NCBI GenBank assembly: GCA_903861145.1
Contig: CAIOTH010000134.1
Location: 12,969 to 76,968, forward strand
Source of the DNA: an uncultured Bacteroidota bacterium
Lineage (GTDB): Bacteria; Bacteroidota; Bacteroidia; Chitinophagales; LD1
DNA length: 64,000 bases
Direction: 5' to 3'
Below, piece by piece: positions 11,370-56,236 of the stretch. Made by a program: the position numbers and the translations under genes. Under the pieces are notes generated by a model that ran no database searches, was not told where the DNA came from, and saw only the letters and a program-made list of their open reading frames with translations. Within the stretch, counting starts at the first letter, position 1, and each line of letters begins with the position of its first letter.

Positions 11370-12581
11370 TTATCCTAAAGCCGCCTTTACTTCGGCAGCT
11401 GCTTCTTTTAATTGAATAGCGCCCCGTACTTTTAAACCGCTTTCGTCAATTATGCGTTTACCCTCCTCAGCATTGGTGCCTTGCAGGCGCACAATAATTG
11501 GAACCGGTATAGTACCTATTGATTTATAAGCATCAACTATACCCTGTGCAACCCTGTCGCAACGTACAATACCACCAAAAATATTTACCAGTATCGCCTT
11601 TACATGTGGGTCTTTCAAAATAATACGGAAGGCCTTTTCAACGCGTTCTGCGTTAGCTGTTCCACCTACGTCAAGAAAGTTTGCAGGGTCGCCACCGCTT
11701 AGCTTAATAATATCCATGGTGGCCATGGCAAGGCCCGCGCCGTTAACCATACAACCTACGTTACCGTCAAGTTTCACATAGTTCAAATCTGCTGCTGCTG
11801 CTTCAATTTCTGTAGGGTCTTCTTCGTTCAAATCGCGCATGGCTTCAATATCCTTATGGCGATAGAGGGCATTGTCATCTAAACTAATCTTTCCGTCAAC
11901 AGCAATAATTTTACTATCCGAAGTTTTAAGCACGGGGTTAATTTCAACCATGCTGGCATCTGCACCTATGTAGGTGTTATACACTGCGCGAACAAATTTT
12001 ATCATTTCCTTATTCGCATTGCCGCTCAACCCAAGGTTAAAGGCAATTTTACGGCACTGGAAATCCAGCAAGCCTGCACCCGGCTCAATCCATTCTTTCA
12101 AAACCTTATCAGGTGTATGTTCAGCAACTTCTTCAATATCCATACCACCTTCGGTGCTGTAGATAATTACATTTTTACCGGTTCCGCGGTCTAACAGGAT
12201 AGAGAAATATAATTCCTTGGTCGGGCTTTCGCCGGGGTAGTAAACATCCTGGGCAACCAGTATTTTATTCACTAATCTGCCATGGGCGCCGGTTTGTTTG
12301 GTAACCAAAACATGGCCCAAAATGTTGGTAGCAATTTCTTTAACCTTATCGTGGTTTTTGGCTAAAGCAACCCCGTGTTGCTCGGTGCCTCCAATGGTGC
12401 CTTTACCCCGACCGCCGGCATGTATTTGCGATTTTACAACAACCCAGTCGCTATTATAAAGTTCTTTCATTTTTTGGGCCGCAGCAACAGCCTCTTCGGG
12501 TGTTGTAGCCACAATTCCTTCCTGAATGGCCGCACCATTCTTTTTCATTAATTCCTTAGCCTGGTATTCGTGTAGGTTCAT
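11370..12581 (-). CDS. sucC: succinate--CoA ligase (ADP-forming) beta subunit
   Basis: MNLHEYQAKELMKKNG N-terminus, ATP-grasp region and C-terminal GIVRCD...ILVNIFGGI motifs. 403 aa. Terminator at 11313-11344. Confidence 0.95.
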   Translation of the reverse strand: MNLHEYQAKELMKKNGAAIQEGIVATTPEEAVAAAQKMKELYNSDWVVVKSQIHAGGRGKGTIGGTEQHGVALAKNHDKVKEIATNILGHVLVTKQTGAHGRLVNKILVAQDVYYPGESPTKELYFSILLDRGTGKNVIIYSTEGGMDIEEVAEHTPDKVLKEWIEPGAGLLDFQCRKIAFNLGLSGNANKEMIKFVRAVYNTYIGADASMVEINPVLKTSDSKIIAVDGKISLDDNALYRHKDIEAMRDLNEEDPTEIEAAAADLNYVKLDGNVGCMVNGAGLAMATMDIIKLSGGDPANFLDVGGTANAERVEKAFRIILKDPHVKAILVNIFGGIVRCDRVAQGIVDAYKSIGTIPVPIIVRLQGTNAEEGKRIIDESGLKVRGAIQLKEAAAEVKAALG

Positions 12582-12656
12582 GTATTTTGTTTAAGCAGAA
12601 CGAAAGTAATATTCTGCCATGAATAGCCAAATAATTTTCAGCCTTGGGCTATGGGC

Positions 12657-12689
12657 AAAAAAAAAGAGGCCGCTATTTTGCGACCTCCC
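12657..12689 (-). terminator. rho-independent terminator (zinc-finger mini-gene)
   Basis: On the minus strand, the hairpin gaggtcgc-aaaata-gcggcctc (one mismatch) is followed by TTTTTTTTT. Confidence 0.7.
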
Positions 12690-12735
12690 CTTTAACCCAA
12701 TGCTCTGCTGACACTATTTTATTAAAAAGAATAAT

Positions 12736-12948
12736 TTAATCCCAATCTCCCTCATGTGTGGGGCAAAGGTTTCCGTGGCCTTTACATGGTTTGCATTCGG
12801 CATCTCGAAACTGCCCGCTGCCTTTGCACATGCCACATTCTCTTAATCCATGGCCGCACCAATAGCAATATGCACGTTTTGCAGTAATCATTACACTTAA
12901 CTGTAGTATCTTTTTTGCGGTATATCCTTGTGGTGCATTTGCTTTCAT
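12736..12948 (-). CDS. small DnaJ-type zinc-finger protein
   Basis: 70-aa ORF with CYWCGHG, CGMCKGSG and CKPCKGHG (CxxCxGxG-type repeats). A rho-independent terminator lies downstream at 12657-12689. Confidence 0.55.
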   Translation of the reverse strand: MKANAPQGYTAKKILQLSVMITAKRAYCYWCGHGLRECGMCKGSGQFRDAECKPCKGHGNLCPTHEGDWD

Positions 12949-13030
12949 TTTACCGTATTTATACTGTTATGGATATAATATCGAACCTATTAATTTGGTA
13001 GTGCAAAGATGCTTAACCAGTTGCCTGGTA

Positions 13031-13251
13031 CGTTACACAATTCCTAAAAGGAGTTACACAATTCCCACATATTGCAATTTAACAAAAGATAAAGCCGCTT
13101 CAATACCAGTTGCTAAAAGACATCGCTCACCTGCAACATTCGCCGTTATAGCAAAGTTCATTCCATCCTGGTAAATAATCCATAACCCAATGCTTGCATA
13201 GCAAGTGTTTTAAGTGGGAATTGTGTAACTCCTTTAAAGAATTATGTAACG
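13031..13251. repeat. 38-bp imperfect inverted repeat pair (13031-13068 / 13214-13251) flanking a 145-bp segment
   Basis: The left arm is cgttacacaattcctaaaaggagttacacaattcccac. The reverse complement of the right arm is cgttacataattctttaaaggagttacacaattcccac (35/38 identical). Each arm carries two copies of GTTACA(C/T)AATTC spaced 20 bp apart. Confidence 0.9.
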
Positions 13252-13312
13252 CATGCGCTTATAAAGGCATCAACTTTACATGGTGAAGGTTATTCACAAA
13301 TAAAAAACAGAA

Positions 13313-14068
13313 ATGAAAAACAATCAAAATAAACCTGGCAATAAAAAGGAAGGAAAAACGAATAGTGGTACTTTCGAAACAGGAATACCCGACACAGATG
13401 TATTGGGCATGCAAAATACTAACCAGGCTACAGCCGACAAAATTCATTCATCAAGGCCGATAATAAGCAAAGAGAGTAAAAACGGTAAGAACAACCTAAA
13501 AAATACAAGCCTTTTGGTGGGTCTTATTATTACGTCAATGTTGTTTAGTGCATGCAATTCAAACGGTACAATAGAAAAAACTGAAGCCGCCACTGTAGAA
13601 AGCATTGAATCGGCTAATGGAAAGGTAAATGCCGATGACGCCCGGTTTGCTATAGAGGCAGCAAGCGGAGGCATGCTTGAAGTTGAATTAGGTAAGCTTT
13701 GCCCCATGCAGGCTAATAATTTTCATGTAAAAACCTTTGGGGCTATGATGGTAGACGACCATACCCAGGCGAATAACGAATTAAAAAGCATAGCAGCCAA
13801 CAAGAACTTAACATTACCGGTTACAATGAATAATAAGGATCAGAAAATGTACGATGACCTGAAAAAGAAAACAGGAAGTGATTTTGACAACGCCTACATA
13901 CAGATGATGGTGAGTGATCACGAAAAGGATTTAAGCGATTTCAAAAAAGAATCTGCAGAAGGCAAAGATGCCGATATAAGTTCTTTCGCTACTAAAACAC
14001 TACCTGTTTTGCAAAAACATATGGAGGCGGCAAAAGCTGCGCAGCAAGCCATTATGGGTAAAAGTTAA
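13313..14068 (+). CDS. DUF4142 domain-containing lipoprotein
   Basis: Lipobox LFSACNS. DARFAIEAASGGMLEVELGKL...MMVDDHTQANNELKSIA...MVSDHEKDLSDF matches the duplicated four-helix DUF4142 pattern. Confidence 0.75.
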   Translation: MKNNQNKPGNKKEGKTNSGTFETGIPDTDVLGMQNTNQATADKIHSSRPIISKESKNGKNNLKNTSLLVGLIITSMLFSACNSNGTIEKTEAATVESIESANGKVNADDARFAIEAASGGMLEVELGKLCPMQANNFHVKTFGAMMVDDHTQANNELKSIAANKNLTLPVTMNNKDQKMYDDLKKKTGSDFDNAYIQMMVSDHEKDLSDFKKESAEGKDADISSFATKTLPVLQKHMEAAKAAQQAIMGKS

Positions 14069-14129
14069 TTGAATTTATTTTTCGATTGCCTTGTAACGGG
14101 CTAATTGATAACTATCTAAATCTGGCCCA

Positions 14130-14567
14130 ATGAATTACTTAAAGGTATTTTTAGCCGGGCTAATTGCCACCGGTGTTATGACGGGCTTTATGGCCCTTGC
14201 ACCATACATCGGTCTCCCAAATATGAATGCGGGTGAAATACTCGGCTCGATGTTTGGTGGAAACAGGATTATAGGCTGGGCAGAACATTTTGTAGCAGGC
14301 ATTATTTTTGCATTTATATACGCCAAATTTGTTAACCGGTTATTGCCGGTTGAAAACAATATAGCCCGGGGCACAATTTATGGCATCCTGCTATTCATTC
14401 TTTCTGAAATAGTTTTTACCGCCATCAACGTTTTAGGATACCTAAGCTGGCATCAAAAAGAATCAATGGCATTAATGGTTTTTGGCGAAATATTGGCTTG
14501 CCTGCTATATGGCGCGGTGTTAGGGGTTTTTATAACCAAAGTAAGGGATGCCCCGCGAGGCAAGTAA
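14130..14567 (+). CDS. small integral membrane protein (4 predicted TM helices)
   Basis: 145-aa hydrophobic ORF with four long hydrophobic stretches. No family recognised. Confidence 0.6.
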   Translation: MNYLKVFLAGLIATGVMTGFMALAPYIGLPNMNAGEILGSMFGGNRIIGWAEHFVAGIIFAFIYAKFVNRLLPVENNIARGTIYGILLFILSEIVFTAINVLGYLSWHQKESMALMVFGEILACLLYGAVLGVFITKVRDAPRGK

Positions 14568-14630
14568 TGGGTTGAATAGCCAGCGTAGTAGCTGCTTCTA
14601 TTGTATCAGTCATTATTTTATCTTCACGCA

Positions 14631-15290
14631 ATGATTTTAGAAGCAACGGATATACGCAAGCGCTATGGAGCGCTGGAAGTATTAAAAGGCGTATCGCTTT
14701 CAGTTAAAAAGGGAGAGATAGTATCGTTGGTGGGGCCATCGGGTGCCGGCAAATCTACACTGTTACATATTATGGGCACGCTTGATAAACCAGATGCCGG
14801 AAAAATAATTATTGAAGGCAAAGAAGTTGCCATGCAAAATGAAAAAGCGTTATCGGCTTTTCGCAATAAAAGCATTGGCTTTATCTTCCAGTTTCACCAC
14901 CTGTTACCCGAGTTTACAGCTATTGAAAATGTTTGTATACCCGCATTTATAGCCGGAGTTTCAAAAAAACAAGCCGAGCAAAAGGCGACCGAACTACTTG
15001 ACTTATTAAAACTAAGCCATCGCATTAACCATAAACCAACCGAGCTATCGGGCGGAGAGCAACAACGCGTGGCAGTAGCCCGTGCCTTAATCAATAACCC
15101 TTCGCTAATAATGGCCGATGAACCCTCAGGCAACCTTGATACTAATAACGCCCATGATTTACACAAGCTGTTCTTCGAGTTACGTGACCGGTTAGACCAA
15201 ACTTTTGTCATTGTAACACATAATGAGGACTTAGCAAACATGGCGGATAGGAAAGTGAATATGAAGGATGGGCTAATTTCAAGTTCCTAA
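14631..15290 (+). CDS. lolD: ABC transporter ATP-binding protein, LolD/MacB-type
   Basis: Walker [10 protein letters not shown], signature [15 protein letters not shown] and Walker [12 protein letters not shown]. The ATG at 14631 is preferred over the track TTG at 14601. Confidence 0.88.
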
Positions 15291-15342
15291 TTACGAGTTT
15301 GCCATTTTAAACTCGGAACTAGAAACCCGAAACTCGAAATTT

Positions 15343-16704
15343 TTATGCCATCGCTTCAATCAAATCAAACTCGGTAATAATGTTTATTGAGCCGCTGTTT
15401 GCTTTAACGAGTACTGCTGTATTTTCTTTCGATATGTGTTTTGAAATATCGGCTGCTGTAGAAGTAATAGCCACAAAAGGAAATGGCTTGCCCATTACTT
15501 TGCCTACTTCTTCATCGCGGTGATATGGATTATCCATCAGTAATTGAAGTATCTGGTGTTCGGTAATACTGCCGTTGTTGTTAGCCCCATCCATTACCGG
15601 TAATTGTGTAATGTGCAGGTCCTTCATTTTACGGAAAGCAGAAACCACTGTTTCTTTCGGGTCGGCAAAAACAAGCTCGCGTATTTGTTTGCGCTCGATG
15701 ATGGTTTTAGCGGTTATAATTTCATCCACTAAAAATCCGCGTTCGCGCATCCAATCGTCGTTATAAATTTTGGCTAAGTAGCGGCTGCCGTGATCGTGCA
15801 GAATAATTACAACTACATCATCCTTTTTAAACTTGTCTTTAAGCTGCATTAAGCCCTGCATTACCGTGCCTGCGCTATAGCCACAAAACAGGCCTTCTTC
15901 GCGGGCCAGTTTGCGGGCCATAATGGCGCCATCTTTATCAGTAACCTGCTCAATGTGGTCAATGTATTTCATATCGTAATTCTGGGGAATAAAGTCCTCA
16001 CCTATTCCCTCTGTTACGTATGGGTAAACCTCCTTGTCATCTAATTCTCCGGTATCATGAAATTTCTTTAACAAAGAACCGTAAACGTCAATGCCATAAA
16101 CCTTAACGTTCGGGTTCTTTTCTTTTAAATACATGGCAACACCCATTACCGTGCCCCCGGTACCAATAGTGGTAACATAGTGTGTTACCTTTCCTTCAGT
16201 TTGTTCCCAAATTTCGGGGCCGGTGGTTTCGTAGTGAGCGGCGCGGTTGCTTAGGTTATCGTACTGGTTCATGTGCACCGAATTCGGTATTTCTTTAGCC
16301 AGCCTTTTGGCGATAGAATAATACGAACGCGGGTCTTCAGGCTCAACATTAGTAGGGCATACAATCACTTCTGCACCTAGCGACCTTAAAATATCCAGCT
16401 TTTGTTTCGATTGTTTATCGGTGGTGGTAAATATGCACTTATAACCTTTAATAACCGAAGCCAGGGCCAGGCCCATACCGGTGTTACCCGAAGTACACTC
16501 AATAATAGTTCCACCCGGCTTTAAACGCCCATCGCGCTCGGCGTCTTCAACCATCTTAATCCCAATACGGTCTTTAATCGAGTTGCCGGGGTTGAAATAC
16601 TCTACCTTGGCTAAAAACAAACCAGGCACATCTTTAGTAATCTTATTGATTTTAACCAGCGGTGTTCTGCCAATGGTTTCTACTATGTTATTGAAGTATT
16701 GCAT
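15343..16704 (-). CDS. cystathionine beta-synthase-like PLP enzyme with C-terminal CBS pair
   Basis: GRTPLVKIN...EYFNPGNSIKDRIG (PLP lysine), TSGNTGMGLA, and a C-terminal ~120 aa with two CBS-like modules. Confidence 0.85.
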   Translation of the reverse strand: MQYFNNIVETIGRTPLVKINKITKDVPGLFLAKVEYFNPGNSIKDRIGIKMVEDAERDGRLKPGGTIIECTSGNTGMGLALASVIKGYKCIFTTTDKQSKQKLDILRSLGAEVIVCPTNVEPEDPRSYYSIAKRLAKEIPNSVHMNQYDNLSNRAAHYETTGPEIWEQTEGKVTHYVTTIGTGGTVMGVAMYLKEKNPNVKVYGIDVYGSLLKKFHDTGELDDKEVYPYVTEGIGEDFIPQNYDMKYIDHIEQVTDKDGAIMARKLAREEGLFCGYSAGTVMQGLMQLKDKFKKDDVVVIILHDHGSRYLAKIYNDDWMRERGFLVDEIITAKTIIERKQIRELVFADPKETVVSAFRKMKDLHITQLPVMDGANNNGSITEHQILQLLMDNPYHRDEEVGKVMGKPFPFVAITSTAADISKHISKENTAVLVKANSGSINIITEFDLIEAMA

Positions 16705-16730
16705 ACTGCTTTATTTAAAAAATAATTAGG

Positions 16731-16815
16731 CCACGAAGGCACAAAGACACTACGAAATACAAATCTATAAAATCAGTCGCCATCAAAAACTTTGTGCCTT
16801 AGTGTCTTTGTGGCA
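16731..16815. repeat. hairpin-forming element made of inverted CTTNGTGN octamer triplets
   Basis: The left arm ccacgaag gcacaaag acactacg and right arm ctttgtgc cttagtgt ctttgtgg share a 13-bp perfect complementary core: cacaaagacacta at 16740-16752 and tagtgtctttgtg at 16800-16812. Confidence 0.8.
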
Positions 16816-16825
16816 GGGTATTATC

Positions 16826-17335
16826 TTATAAATCAGCCTCAACTAATTCTTTCATTTTTTCTACAAACACCAAAGTAGCCGGGCAATGTGCTAAGTTATT
16901 AATGTAAGTCTTCTCCTCGGCCTGGTATAAAAAGTCACGCCTAACAAAATGCGGAAACTGGGCGCAATCATCAGGCCTTATTTCGTAAATACTGCACATG
17001 TTGTTTTTACCCAAAAACTGGCATGGCGTACTTTGATTAACGATATCCTTATTTTCATCCACTTTCAACCACTTATCATAAAACTGCTGGTAGCTCAATT
17101 TAAAGTGCTTCGAAATACGGTTAATATCTTTACGGGTATAAGTGGGGGTCATGGTTTTGCAGCAATTTCCGCAGCTAAGGCAAGCCACTTCTTTCCATAC
17201 TTCCTTATCGGCAGCAACAACGGTTTTTAATATCCCCTTTGGCTTGGATTTTGCAAGTTTCTTTAAAAATTTACCCAGGTCTTTCCTTTTTCTATAAGCC
17301 CTGCGTTTGTATTTCTTAATGTCGAGTTCGGCCAT
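16826..17335 (-). CDS. YkgJ-family cysteine-cluster protein (UPF0153)
   Basis: CLSCGNCCKT motif plus later C..C residues, typical of the YkgJ zinc/iron-chelating family. 169 aa. Confidence 0.75.
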   Translation of the reverse strand: MAELDIKKYKRRAYRKRKDLGKFLKKLAKSKPKGILKTVVAADKEVWKEVACLSCGNCCKTMTPTYTRKDINRISKHFKLSYQQFYDKWLKVDENKDIVNQSTPCQFLGKNNMCSIYEIRPDDCAQFPHFVRRDFLYQAEEKTYINNLAHCPATLVFVEKMKELVEADL

Positions 17336-17448
17336 AAATTAATTTAAATGAAAGGGCCGAAAATAAGGATTTGGTTTGTGTATCATAATAAATGAGCAAA
17401 GTGGTTTTGCACCGTGACGTTTATCATGCCTTTTTAAGCTTTATGAGC

Positions 17449-40810: not shown

Positions 40811-40969
40811 ATGAGCGATGCAATGTGAATGAACCTCATTAGCGTAGAGTTACTAATTTGGACAGAACGTAAATGATGCAATTTTTCAAAGTAATTGTGT
40901 AATGCTATTGTAGTGAATGGGTGGCATCTTTGTATCACCAATTTATTCAGTTTCCATAAATACACAATT

Positions 40970-41434
40970 ATGAAAAATATAACTCTCCTCGCCGCAGCAA
41001 TTACCTTCGCAGTAAGTGCCGGTGCTCAAAATTCACGGCCAATCGCAAGCACGCAACATACCCCGGTTTATTCAGAAGACAAATCGGTAAGCATGTATCA
41101 CAATATTGGGAACGACCATTTTTCGGTCATTAACCGCGATTGGGAAGTTATGACTGCGGCCAAGGCTCCTTATACTCTTTTAACAGCATCAACTGCTACC
41201 AGCGATTGCTATAAGATGATTGGCACTAGTATGTTTGAAGTAAGGGGCGAAACACAAACCGGCATGTGTAAGTACGCTACAGTTAAGAATGGGGCCGTAG
41301 TACTTATAAATGGTGTAGTAATAACCGATAGCGGCAAAGTATTGCACCTTAAAAGTGGCGATAGCATAAATATGAAGGGCATTCTAACACGGAACGCAGA
41401 ACAAGAAAGTAATATTGTTGCTGAGAAGTTATAG
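40970..41434 (+). CDS. secreted hypothetical protein
   Basis: MKNITLLAAAITFAVSAGAQ signal peptide. 154 aa, bracketed by two similar hairpin terminators. Confidence 0.6.
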   Translation: MKNITLLAAAITFAVSAGAQNSRPIASTQHTPVYSEDKSVSMYHNIGNDHFSVINRDWEVMTAAKAPYTLLTASTATSDCYKMIGTSMFEVRGETQTGMCKYATVKNGAVVLINGVVITDSGKVLHLKSGDSINMKGILTRNAEQESNIVAEKL

Positions 41435-53654: not shown

Positions 53655-55286
53655 TTATTTCAACTTCTCTATCGCAGCCTTAACAACGTTATCGGTTGGA
53701 TTAAGAATATAGTAAAAGCCATCCATGCGCCATGTTTGCTTGGCCAAAAAGGCTTTAAGGTTTAGTTTAACCTTATCAGTTATTTTACCCTGCTTAGCTT
53801 CGTTAGTTTTAAGCCCTGCCGCAAAAGCGTATTTATAAAAGTCGCTCAGCATTTGGTCAGATACTACATAATCGTTTTTAAACTCCTCCTCGGTCTTAAA
53901 CTTGCCCAAAATATCACCATGCTGCGATGAGTATTTATATACAAACTCAGGAATAAAAGAGCGCACCGCATAAAAGTATTCGCTTTCACCACTCGTATCC
54001 ATTGGCACAAAAATATCGGGGCGTATGCCGCCTCCACCGTAAACCCTTTTACCCTTGGATGTTTTATACACAGTTGTGTCAAGGCTGGTTATCGAATCTT
54101 CATGCACAAACTCTCCACGGCTATACCGGTCGTAAATTTCGTTATAGTACTGGTCGGCACCTTTATCGTATGGCCGCTGTATGCATCTGCCAGATGGTGT
54201 GTAATAACGTGCTATTGTAAGCCTTAGCGCCGAACCATCCTTTAAATCGTATTGCTCCTGCACAAGGCCTTTACCAAACGATGTGCGGCCAATAATAGTC
54301 CCCCGGTCCCAATCTTGAATCGCGCCTGACAGGATTTCACTGGCCGATGCCGACCCCTGGTCAATCAAAATACACAAATCGCCTTTTTCGAAAAGGCCGG
54401 GTTTACCCGCAAGGTAATCCTGCCTATCGTAAGCTTTACCTTTGGTGTAAACCAATAGCTTCTCGCCCGATATTAATTCATCAGCAATTGAGGTTGCCGC
54501 CTGCAAATAGCCGCCGGGGTTACCTCTTAAATCAATAACCAACTTCTTCATGCCTTTATCTTGCAGTTGATGGAGTTTCTCCACAAACTCCTGGTGGGTA
54601 TTTGCACTAAAGCTTGTTATGCGGATATAGCCAATATCGCTTGTTGCCATATAGGCGGCATCTATACTGTAAAGCGGAATTTTATCGCGGGCAATCTGAA
54701 ACGCTAAAAGTTTAGGGCTGCCACTGCGCATAACACTTACCCTCACCTTTGTCCCCGCAGGGCCGCGCAGGTGTGACTTAACGGCCGTATCTTTAATTTT
54801 AACGCCAGCCACAACGCTATCTTCAATTTTCACAATGCGGTCTCCGGCTTTAAGGCCGGTAAGTTCAGCAGGGCCTCCTGCAATAGCAGTAACAACGGTA
54901 ATGGTGTCCTGAACAATAAAAAACTCGATACCAATGCCCTCAAAATTCCCTTCCAGAGATTCATTCATTTCTCCTAAATCCTTGGCCGGTATATAAACCG
55001 AGTGGGGGTCGAGGTTTGAAAGTATTTTATCAATGCTTTTATCAACCAATTGCGCCCGGTTAATAGTATCTACATACTTAAAGCTGATATAGTTGAGCAC
55101 ATCCTCAATCTTATCGTAATTACGGTTACCCATGGCCTGCTTGCCAATGGTTATGGAGTTAATAACAAACCCCAGCATTACGCCAAAGGCAAGTATCAAA
55201 GCATATATAAACGGGGCATAGGGATTTGTGGTTGACGGTTTGCGGATATTTGAATACCCGGGTAATTTCTCTTCGTTATTATCCAT
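53655..55286 (-). CDS. S41-family C-terminal processing (tail-specific) peptidase
   Basis: PDZ region (GLKAGDRIVKIED), DLRGNPGGYL and the catalytic GSASASEI...GKGLVQ blocks. 543 aa. Promoter box at 55304-55311. Confidence 0.92.
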   Translation of the reverse strand: MDNNEEKLPGYSNIRKPSTTNPYAPFIYALILAFGVMLGFVINSITIGKQAMGNRNYDKIEDVLNYISFKYVDTINRAQLVDKSIDKILSNLDPHSVYIPAKDLGEMNESLEGNFEGIGIEFFIVQDTITVVTAIAGGPAELTGLKAGDRIVKIEDSVVAGVKIKDTAVKSHLRGPAGTKVRVSVMRSGSPKLLAFQIARDKIPLYSIDAAYMATSDIGYIRITSFSANTHQEFVEKLHQLQDKGMKKLVIDLRGNPGGYLQAATSIADELISGEKLLVYTKGKAYDRQDYLAGKPGLFEKGDLCILIDQGSASASEILSGAIQDWDRGTIIGRTSFGKGLVQEQYDLKDGSALRLTIARYYTPSGRCIQRPYDKGADQYYNEIYDRYSRGEFVHEDSITSLDTTVYKTSKGKRVYGGGGIRPDIFVPMDTSGESEYFYAVRSFIPEFVYKYSSQHGDILGKFKTEEEFKNDYVVSDQMLSDFYKYAFAAGLKTNEAKQGKITDKVKLNLKAFLAKQTWRMDGFYYILNPTDNVVKAAIEKLK

Positions 55287-55333: not shown

Positions 55334-55418
55334 GTGTTAAGGTGCGAATGTGTTAACGTATTAACGTAATATAGTCGCTAATCAACATTAACACCTTAGC
55401 ACATTCGCACCTTAATAC
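55334..55418 (+). promoter_or_regulatory. long hairpin / 9-mer repeat array in the predicted murQ 5' leader
   Basis: gtgttaaggtgcgaatgtg (55334-55352) pairs with cacattcgcaccttaatac (55400-55418) as 18 Watson-Crick pairs plus 1 G-U. Four more pairs are possible (55353-55356 with 55396-55399). The element lies between the TAACTTTG box (55316-55323) and the ATG at 55427. It is built from GT(G/A)(T/C)TAA(G/C/T)G 9-mers, three per strand. Confidence 0.6.
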
Positions 55419-55426
55419 GTTACCCA

Positions 55427-56236
55427 ATGAAAATTACAGAATCACCGTCCTTATACCGGCAATTGGAGAAAATGAGCACTGGAGAGTTATTGGTGAACAT
55501 TAACGCCGAGGACCATAAAGTGGCTGGGGCAGTAGAAAAAGCTATTCCACAAATAGAAAAACTAGTGGACGTTATTGCCGATAAAATGCTTGCCGGCGGG
55601 CGATTGTTCTACATAGGTGCAGGCACCAGTGGACGATTAGGCATTGTAGATGCCAGCGAATGCCCCCCAACCTATGGCGTACCACAAGGCCAGGTAATAG
55701 GTTTGATTGCCGGCGGAGATAGTGCCATTAGAAAGGCGGTTGAATTTGCCGAAGACAATACCGAGCAAGGATGGAAAGATCTGTTGCCTTACGACATTGA
55801 TATTAAAGATGTGGTAGTAGGCATTGCGGCCTCGGGCGGCACTCCTTATGTAGTTGGTGCCTTAAAAAAATGCCGCGAGCAAGGCATTACTACCGGCTGC
55901 ATAACATGCAACCCTAATACAGCTGTTGCGCAACAGGCAGATTACCCAGTTGAAGTAATAACCGGCCCCGAATTTGTTACCGGCAGTACCCGAATGAAGG
56001 CCGGAACAGCCCAAAAGCTTGTGCTGAATATGATAAGCACAGCAGCCATGATAAAAATTGGTAGGGTGGAAGACAATAAAATGGTGAACATGCAATTAAC
56101 CAACGATAAGCTGGTAGATCGCGGAACAATTATGATAAACGAAGCCACCGGATTGGGATACGACGACAGCAAAAAGCTACTTTTACAACACGGTAGTGTA
56201 AAAAGGGCTTTGGAAAGTTTCGGGCTAATGAAGTGA
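55427..56236 (+). CDS. murQ: N-acetylmuramic acid 6-phosphate etherase
   Basis: GGRLFYIGAGTSGRLGIVDASECPPTYGV (SIS domain), GIAASGGTPYV and TGSTRMKAGTAQK. 269 aa. Confidence 0.92.
   Translation: MKITESPSLYRQLEKMSTGELLVNINAEDHKVAGAVEKAIPQIEKLVDVIADKMLAGGRLFYIGAGTSGRLGIVDASECPPTYGVPQGQVIGLIAGGDSAIRKAVEFAEDNTEQGWKDLLPYDIDIKDVVVGIAASGGTPYVVGALKKCREQGITTGCITCNPNTAVAQQADYPVEVITGPEFVTGSTRMKAGTAQKLVLNMISTAAMIKIGRVEDNKMVNMQLTNDKLVDRGTIMINEATGLGYDDSKKLLLQHGSVKRALESFGLMK

Follow-up and report, generated by a model that had tools for sequence, protein, structure and literature searches.

The 221-bp inverted repeat (13031-13251) that lies between a small zinc-finger gene and a DUF4142 gene in the 64-kb window, by which we mean the whole stretch of 64,000 nucleotides that was analyzed, is best explained as two activator-dependent promoters placed back to back. 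From sequence comparisons we hold this reading with considerable confidence, the binder most likely being an AraC/XylS-type activator of ~180 amino acids. Each arm consists of a tandem pair of 12- to 15-bp sites with the core GAATTGTGTAAC, arranged as a 21-bp direct repeat and reading toward its own gene, and the inverted repeat would exist only through the back-to-back placement of the zinc-finger promoter and the promoter of DUF4142 (with DUF6789). Upon a signal, the regulator would fill both tandem sites, and the bound protein would contact and recruit RNA polymerase at two promoters that lack a -33 element, such that both directions would be switched on together, leftward through the zinc-finger gene and rightward through DUF4142 and DUF6789. 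Both genes would belong to a wider stress-type regulon and, judging by its content, the inducing signal may be stress, cold, starvation, or dormancy. The four motif copies are very likely protein-binding sites, and they probably form two independent tandem sites for an activator, one per promoter.

Divergent genes and their transcription units

The element occupies a 364-bp intergenic region. To its left, a minus-strand ORF (12736-12948) encodes a 70-amino-acid CxxCxGxG zinc-finger protein with weak similarity to Anti-TRAP and DnaJ zinc fingers; to its right, the plus strand carries a DUF4142 gene (13313-14068; Pfam E=3e-42) and, downstream of it, a gene for a DUF6789 membrane protein (14130-14567). 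These ORF and Pfam results bear out the flanking genes and the divergent gap as they were described in an earlier note on this DNA. The 61-nt gap between DUF4142 and DUF6789 and their shared strand make an operon probable (13313..14567, +). On the other side, a GC-rich hairpin with nine consecutive Ts behind it (12655-12691, -) lies just 3' of the zinc-finger stop codon and is probably the intrinsic terminator of that gene, which would make the zinc-finger gene a single-gene unit. The same hairpin gave a weak, sub-threshold Rfam match to ctRNA_p42d (E=0.09).

The DUF4142 ORF begins (window 13313-13620) with a low-complexity, K/N-rich N-terminal extension of ~100 amino acids that precedes a lipoprotein-like signal (…LFSACNS). 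Because one related assembly annotates a 206-amino-acid DUF4142 product instead, translation may actually begin downstream of 13313.

Homologs of the zinc-finger protein were found in a few metagenomic species. In the nearest strain, whose zinc-finger protein is 93% identical, the locus has a similar gap of 366 nt, and the homologs of other species sit downstream of the same tandem pair. For the DUF4142 protein, the best match in reference genomes was only 41% identical, and none of the DUF4142 relatives in those genomes carried the motif.

Four sites and two predicted promoters

A repeat finder placed the arms at 13031-13071 and 13211-13251, each 41 nt long, 90% complementary, and separated by 139 nt, making this the longest inverted repeat of the 64-kb window among those with arms no more than 500 bp apart. 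The repeat described in the earlier note was thus recovered with slightly longer arms. Its count of two motif copies per arm and four in total also stood, whereas its spacing of 20 bp did not: the two copies of GGAATTGTGTAAC in each arm recur with a start-to-start period of 21 bp. The sequence GTTACACAATTCC is exact at 13032 (+), 13053 (+), and 13217 (-) and has 2 mismatches at 13238 (-); there is no further match with 0 or 1 mismatch anywhere in the 64-kb window.

Oriented toward DUF4142, the distal regulator site (13216..13230, +; GGGAATTGTGTAACT) is near the consensus, with a weight-matrix (PWM) score of 22.3, and aligns with 166 non-redundant pairs found elsewhere; the proximal site (13237..13251, +; AAGAATTATGTAACG; PWM score of 18.3) follows 21 bp past it. 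The zinc-finger promoter has the mirror arrangement, with a distal site at 13052..13066 (GGGAATTGTGTAACT on the minus strand; PWM score of 22.3) and, at the same 21-bp period, a proximal site at 13031..13045 (AGGAATTGTGTAACG on the minus strand; PWM score of 20.9). The identity of the two arms is matched position by position by the near-consensus sites, the T-rich spacer between the sites, and an upstream tGTG; the arms are alike because both follow the consensus of the pair family in these features. Between the two distal sites lies a 149-bp spacer (13067..13215) without conserved content, longer than two back-to-back promoters need, in which no extra site with a PWM score of at least 9 was found. 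The -7-like sequence that the earlier note had pointed out on the minus strand within this spacer is present there, in imperfect form (TATCTTTTG, 13083-13091).

The -7 element of Bacteroidota housekeeping promoters is TAnnTTTG. A predicted -7 box for DUF4142, and probably for DUF6789, was located at 13271..13278 (+; CAACTTTA), and one for the zinc-finger gene was located at 13004..13011 (-; CATCTTTG). At both promoters, A..TTT, which forms the core of this element, lies 21 nt past the C of the proximal GTAAC, and in both boxes the first base is C where the canonical element has T. The corresponding transcription starts are predicted near 13284-13286 (+) and 12996-12998 (-). Relative to these, the proximal sites would fall at about -45 to -33, the position of the -33 element, and the distal sites at about -66 to -55. 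Neither -7 box is within the inverted repeat, and the predicted promoters point away from the arms. A scan for sigma-70 promoters was uninformative, since Bacteroidota use other promoter elements. A role for the element as RNA was considered and dropped because transcription from the predicted promoters would run outward from the arms; its low folding energy simply mirrors the inverted repeat itself, and Rfam at a permissive threshold matched nothing relevant in 12500-13800.

The tandem pair recurs upstream of stress-type genes

Ten instances of the pair from four species, aligned after each had been oriented toward its downstream gene, shared one layout: distal site, 21-bp period, proximal site, 19-20 nt, (C/T)AnnTTTG, 30-90 nt, and ATG. 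A metagenome scan with the pattern GAATTNTGTAAC-N9-GAATTNTGTAAC matched at least 120 stretches, and a weight-matrix scan of these yielded 229 pairs, 166 of them non-redundant. Tandem direct repeats about two helical turns apart, the arrangement of class II activator sites, were found in both window arms and in nearly all of the non-redundant pairs (165/166 with the 21-bp period). The placement and direction of the pairs with respect to the core promoter, with overlap of the -35/-33 region, were likewise fixed: A..TTT lay exactly 21-22 nt past the C of the proximal GTAAC in 138 of the 166 pairs (83%), against a background of ~1% at each other offset. Such exact spacing suggests a stereospecific contact with RNA polymerase.

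Most pairs stand by themselves. Head-to-head arrangements numbered 11 among the 229 pairs, and ~90% of pairs were solo, upstream of single genes. The head-to-head gaps measured 40, 48, 62, 69, 70, 113, 118, 149, and 224 bp, with a further one of 8 bp at locus L145, and no sequence similarity was found among the inner segments of these loci, the window spacer included. At locus L018, one pair precedes a DUF5670 operon that includes a zinc-finger homolog, and a second, opposite pair 224 bp away faces the gene for an ABC-transporter ATPase (ABC_tran). Locus L021 has three pairs, ahead of a zinc-finger homolog, an AraC-type gene, and a short paralog of the N-terminal domain of the latter; locus L024 also has three, one of them ahead of a small gene and then a ferritin-family gene. 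In the set of 72 distinct ORFs found downstream of pairs, HTH_18/AraC was the commonest Pfam assignment (n=6); next came the ice-binding, CsbD, cupin, dodecin, and YtxH families, outer-membrane barrels, and response regulators. The genes downstream of pairs are of a stress type (CsbD, YtxH, dodecin, DUF5670, cupin, and ice-binding).

These distributions bear on two other ways of reading the element. One is a single four-site operator, in which a multimeric repressor bound to both arms would loop the 149-bp spacer and shut both promoters. AraC itself forms a known repression loop, O2-I1, that offers a precedent, and the window has four high-scoring sites in two inward-facing pairs, the proximal ones overlapping the -33 region in a way that would also be workable for a repressor. 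Against it, most pairs lack a partner pair, the head-to-head centre distances range from about 23 to 239 bp with no common length or helical phase, and the exact -7 spacing in 83% of promoters fits activation better than occlusion. We therefore consider a looping operator unlikely. Of the two-plus-two operator that the earlier note had listed, which came closest among its readings, the protein-binding sites very likely hold, while the evidence favors two independent sites over a single looping repressor unit.

The other reading, also named in that note, is a miniature transposable element (MITE) with 41-nt terminal inverted repeats. The element is indeed small, intergenic, and bounded by inverted repeats; however, it occurs as a single copy in the window, other inverted-pair loci differ from it in length and have unrelated inner sequences, and its arms are accounted for as regulatory sites tied to promoters. 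Its flanks (...ctggta / catgcg...) show no target-site duplication, in agreement with what the earlier note had seen. A transposable origin is accordingly so improbable that we give it next to no weight.

Comparison with invertible promoters

The reading preferred in the earlier note was an invertible promoter, here in the form of a site-specific recombinase that flips 13072-13210 and turns an internal promoter away from the zinc-finger gene and toward DUF4142. The resemblance to the invertible promoters of Bacteroides (Mpi or tyrosine-recombinase invertons) is real in outline: 41-nt inverted repeats flank a short intergenic segment of 139 bp beside a putative envelope gene, as inverted repeats in those systems surround intergenic segments of 140-220 bp in the same kind of neighborhood, and one repeat motif is common to many loci. 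The segment also contains the imperfect TATCTTTTG, and the contig of one sample breaks just outside the right arm (L009/L017). Yet that imperfect sequence is the only promoter-like one found inside the segment, and the conserved -7 boxes (13271-13278, +; 13004-13011, -) lie outside the arms. Where the repeats of invertons bound the promoter, the arms here are composite tandem sites that occur mostly singly, at the solo frequency given above, and the spacers of their few head-to-head cases can shrink to 8-48 bp without conserved content. As for the contig break, a k-mer assembler is expected to break at a 41-nt inverted repeat.

A comparison of orientation across assemblies, akin to the comparison of related genomes that the earlier note had proposed, was made with the contigs that encode exactly this zinc-finger or DUF4142 protein and that reach the region. 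All spanning contigs (L005-L008, L010, and L011, reverse views included) and the partial contig L017 had the inner segment in a single orientation, a result that for assemblies describes the majority state only. The earlier statement that no recombinase gene lies nearby agreed with our survey of the 64-kb window: neither an integrase, nor a resolvase, nor a transposase was seen among the Pfam families listed for ORFs of at least 150 amino acids, which were all but four low-ranking families per batch; an enzyme encoded outside the window is conceivable. The inverton literature distinguishes ordinary inverted-repeat promoters from true invertons, such that non-inverton promoters with inverted repeats are a recognized class (PMC11602134). 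Taken with the unrelated spacers, these results leave the invertible promoter a very slim chance, smaller still than that of the looping operator.

Two of the contigs, L008 and L009, which come from other samples, were identical to the window (11473-17352) over most of the locus and ~10% divergent in blocks within sucC (11473-12400) and a CBS/PALP gene (15480-16280), a pattern that suggests either related strains assembled into chimeras or conserved genes that have recombined. Their use as a strain comparison for intergenic selection was abandoned, as the clustering of mismatches in sucC and the CBS gene suggests mosaic assembly.

A candidate AraC-type regulator

The pairs are strongly associated with a conserved AraC-type protein of ~180 amino acids that starts with MVSxRCKM. 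By tblastn, a homolog was found in 40 of the 120 motif loci listed (736 kb in total), and a pair often lies immediately past the end of the gene or ahead of its start. The reciprocal test gave the same association: loci L145 and L147, fetched through the protein alone, contained four pairs each per 20 kb, and one of those in L145 lies upstream of the regulator gene, with 85 nt between them. The neighbors there are genes for CsbD, YtxH, DUF5670, ice-binding proteins, and glycogen phosphorylase.

The protein belongs to a very large and very highly conserved family (at least 8000 scored candidates, all with E<=1e-10), of which the best 120 homologs are at least ~74% identical to the query. The homologs are named only generically, and NCBIfam gave no match to any specific model. 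An AraC-type double helix-turn-helix domain was identified (HTH_18, E=2e-15), and structure prediction returned the C-terminal half as a confident AraC-type DNA-binding domain; the N-terminal ~80 residues matched no named family and were modeled with low confidence. No homolog was detected within the 64-kb window, so the gene would lie elsewhere in the genome.

In the textbook arrangement known from AraC (araI1-I2), RhaS, MelR, and XylS, two half-sites follow one another as direct repeats with a period of 21 bp, and the proximal one overlaps -35. Because the pairs described here share this classical layout, and given the genomic association, the ~180-amino-acid protein is most likely what binds the pairs and activates transcription. 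The likeness to AraC and its relatives extends over the two 21-bp direct repeats, the placement of the proximal one on -35/-33, the fixed distance and orientation to the core promoter, and the double helix-turn-helix of the candidate. The differences are that the N-terminal ~80 residues of the candidate match no named family, that the promoter is of the Bacteroidota -7 type, and that the putative targets are small stress-type proteins and no sugar operon. Alternatively, the regulator gene could simply be a frequent member of the regulon, with a different protein binding the sites.

Two other systems offer partial parallels. The MarA/SoxS/Rob marbox, too, is an asymmetric site of the AraC type, and throughout a stress regulon it keeps one orientation and one distance relative to the core promoter; marboxes, however, are single sites for a monomer, whereas the sites described here are nearly always two in tandem. 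In the agr P2-P3 region of Staphylococcus aureus, divergent promoters have one tandem direct-repeat pair each for AgrA, of the LytTR family, and the whole divergent region similarly reads as an inverted repeat of pairs. This second parallel is an analogy of layout only, as the regulator family and the phylum differ.

A response regulator was considered as a partner of the AraC-type gene and set aside: the two were adjacent only in L147 and L148, which share the same gene arrangement and an identical regulator protein. Two features of the AraC-type genes themselves may be recorded. At L021 (1247-1810), the gene beside the zinc-finger homolog appears frameshifted near position 1530, and the head-to-head spacers of L026 (973-1090) and L040 look, by eye, like the remnant of the 3' end of an AraC-type gene on the opposite strand.

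A possible stress regulon

To our knowledge, no general stress regulator comparable to RpoS or SigB has been defined for Bacteroidota. It is conceivable, and we offer it only tentatively, that the tandem GAATT(A/G)TGTAAC site and the ~180-amino-acid AraC-type protein together act as the master switch by which environmental Bacteroidota mount a general stress or dormancy response. Among the targets could be CsbD, YtxH, dodecin, Dps/ferritin, DUF4142, DUF5670, ice-binding proteins, a desaturase, and glycogen phosphorylase. If this were true, the zinc-finger and DUF4142 genes of the window would count among the core members of the regulon. When the searchable literature, outside of which subscription journals fall, was queried with the motif strings and for an AraC or stress regulon of Bacteroidota, only unrelated primers and papers came back, and within the literature searched the regulon seems undescribed.

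With two back-to-back activator-dependent promoters as the preferred reading, the element amounts to a regulated divergent promoter of an ordinary kind, and the locus drops out as a false candidate for a phase-variation switch. The trap is a general one, in that back-to-back activator-dependent promoters mimic an inverton. What is gained is a precise and testable cis-element, in terms of site, spacing, and promoter geometry, together with a candidate regulator. Together they delimit a set of small stress-type genes, widespread among soil and freshwater Bacteroidota and of unknown function, and they provide a handle on the conditions and functions of DUF4142, DUF6789, DUF5670, and the CxxCxGxG mini-protein.

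Further repeat elements in the window

A third, weaker tandem pair (GTAAATGATGCAATT / AGTAATTGTGTAATG) was observed at 40869-40904 (+), again with the 21-bp period. It is followed by CATCTTTG at 40925-40932, at the family-typical offset of 22 nt, and by the ATG of a secreted DUF6799 protein at 40970. Shuffled controls gave ~1 weak pair per window by chance, without a matching -7 box. The DUF6799 gene is probably a further member of the regulon in the window.

A second strong inverted repeat was found at 55334-55418, with 34-nt arms that are 85% complementary and a 17-nt loop. It lies between an S41 peptidase gene (53655-55286, -) and a SIS-domain gene (55427-56236, +), and repeats resembling GTGTTAA/CGTATTAAC are present in each of its arms; the element could serve as an operator or form a hairpin.
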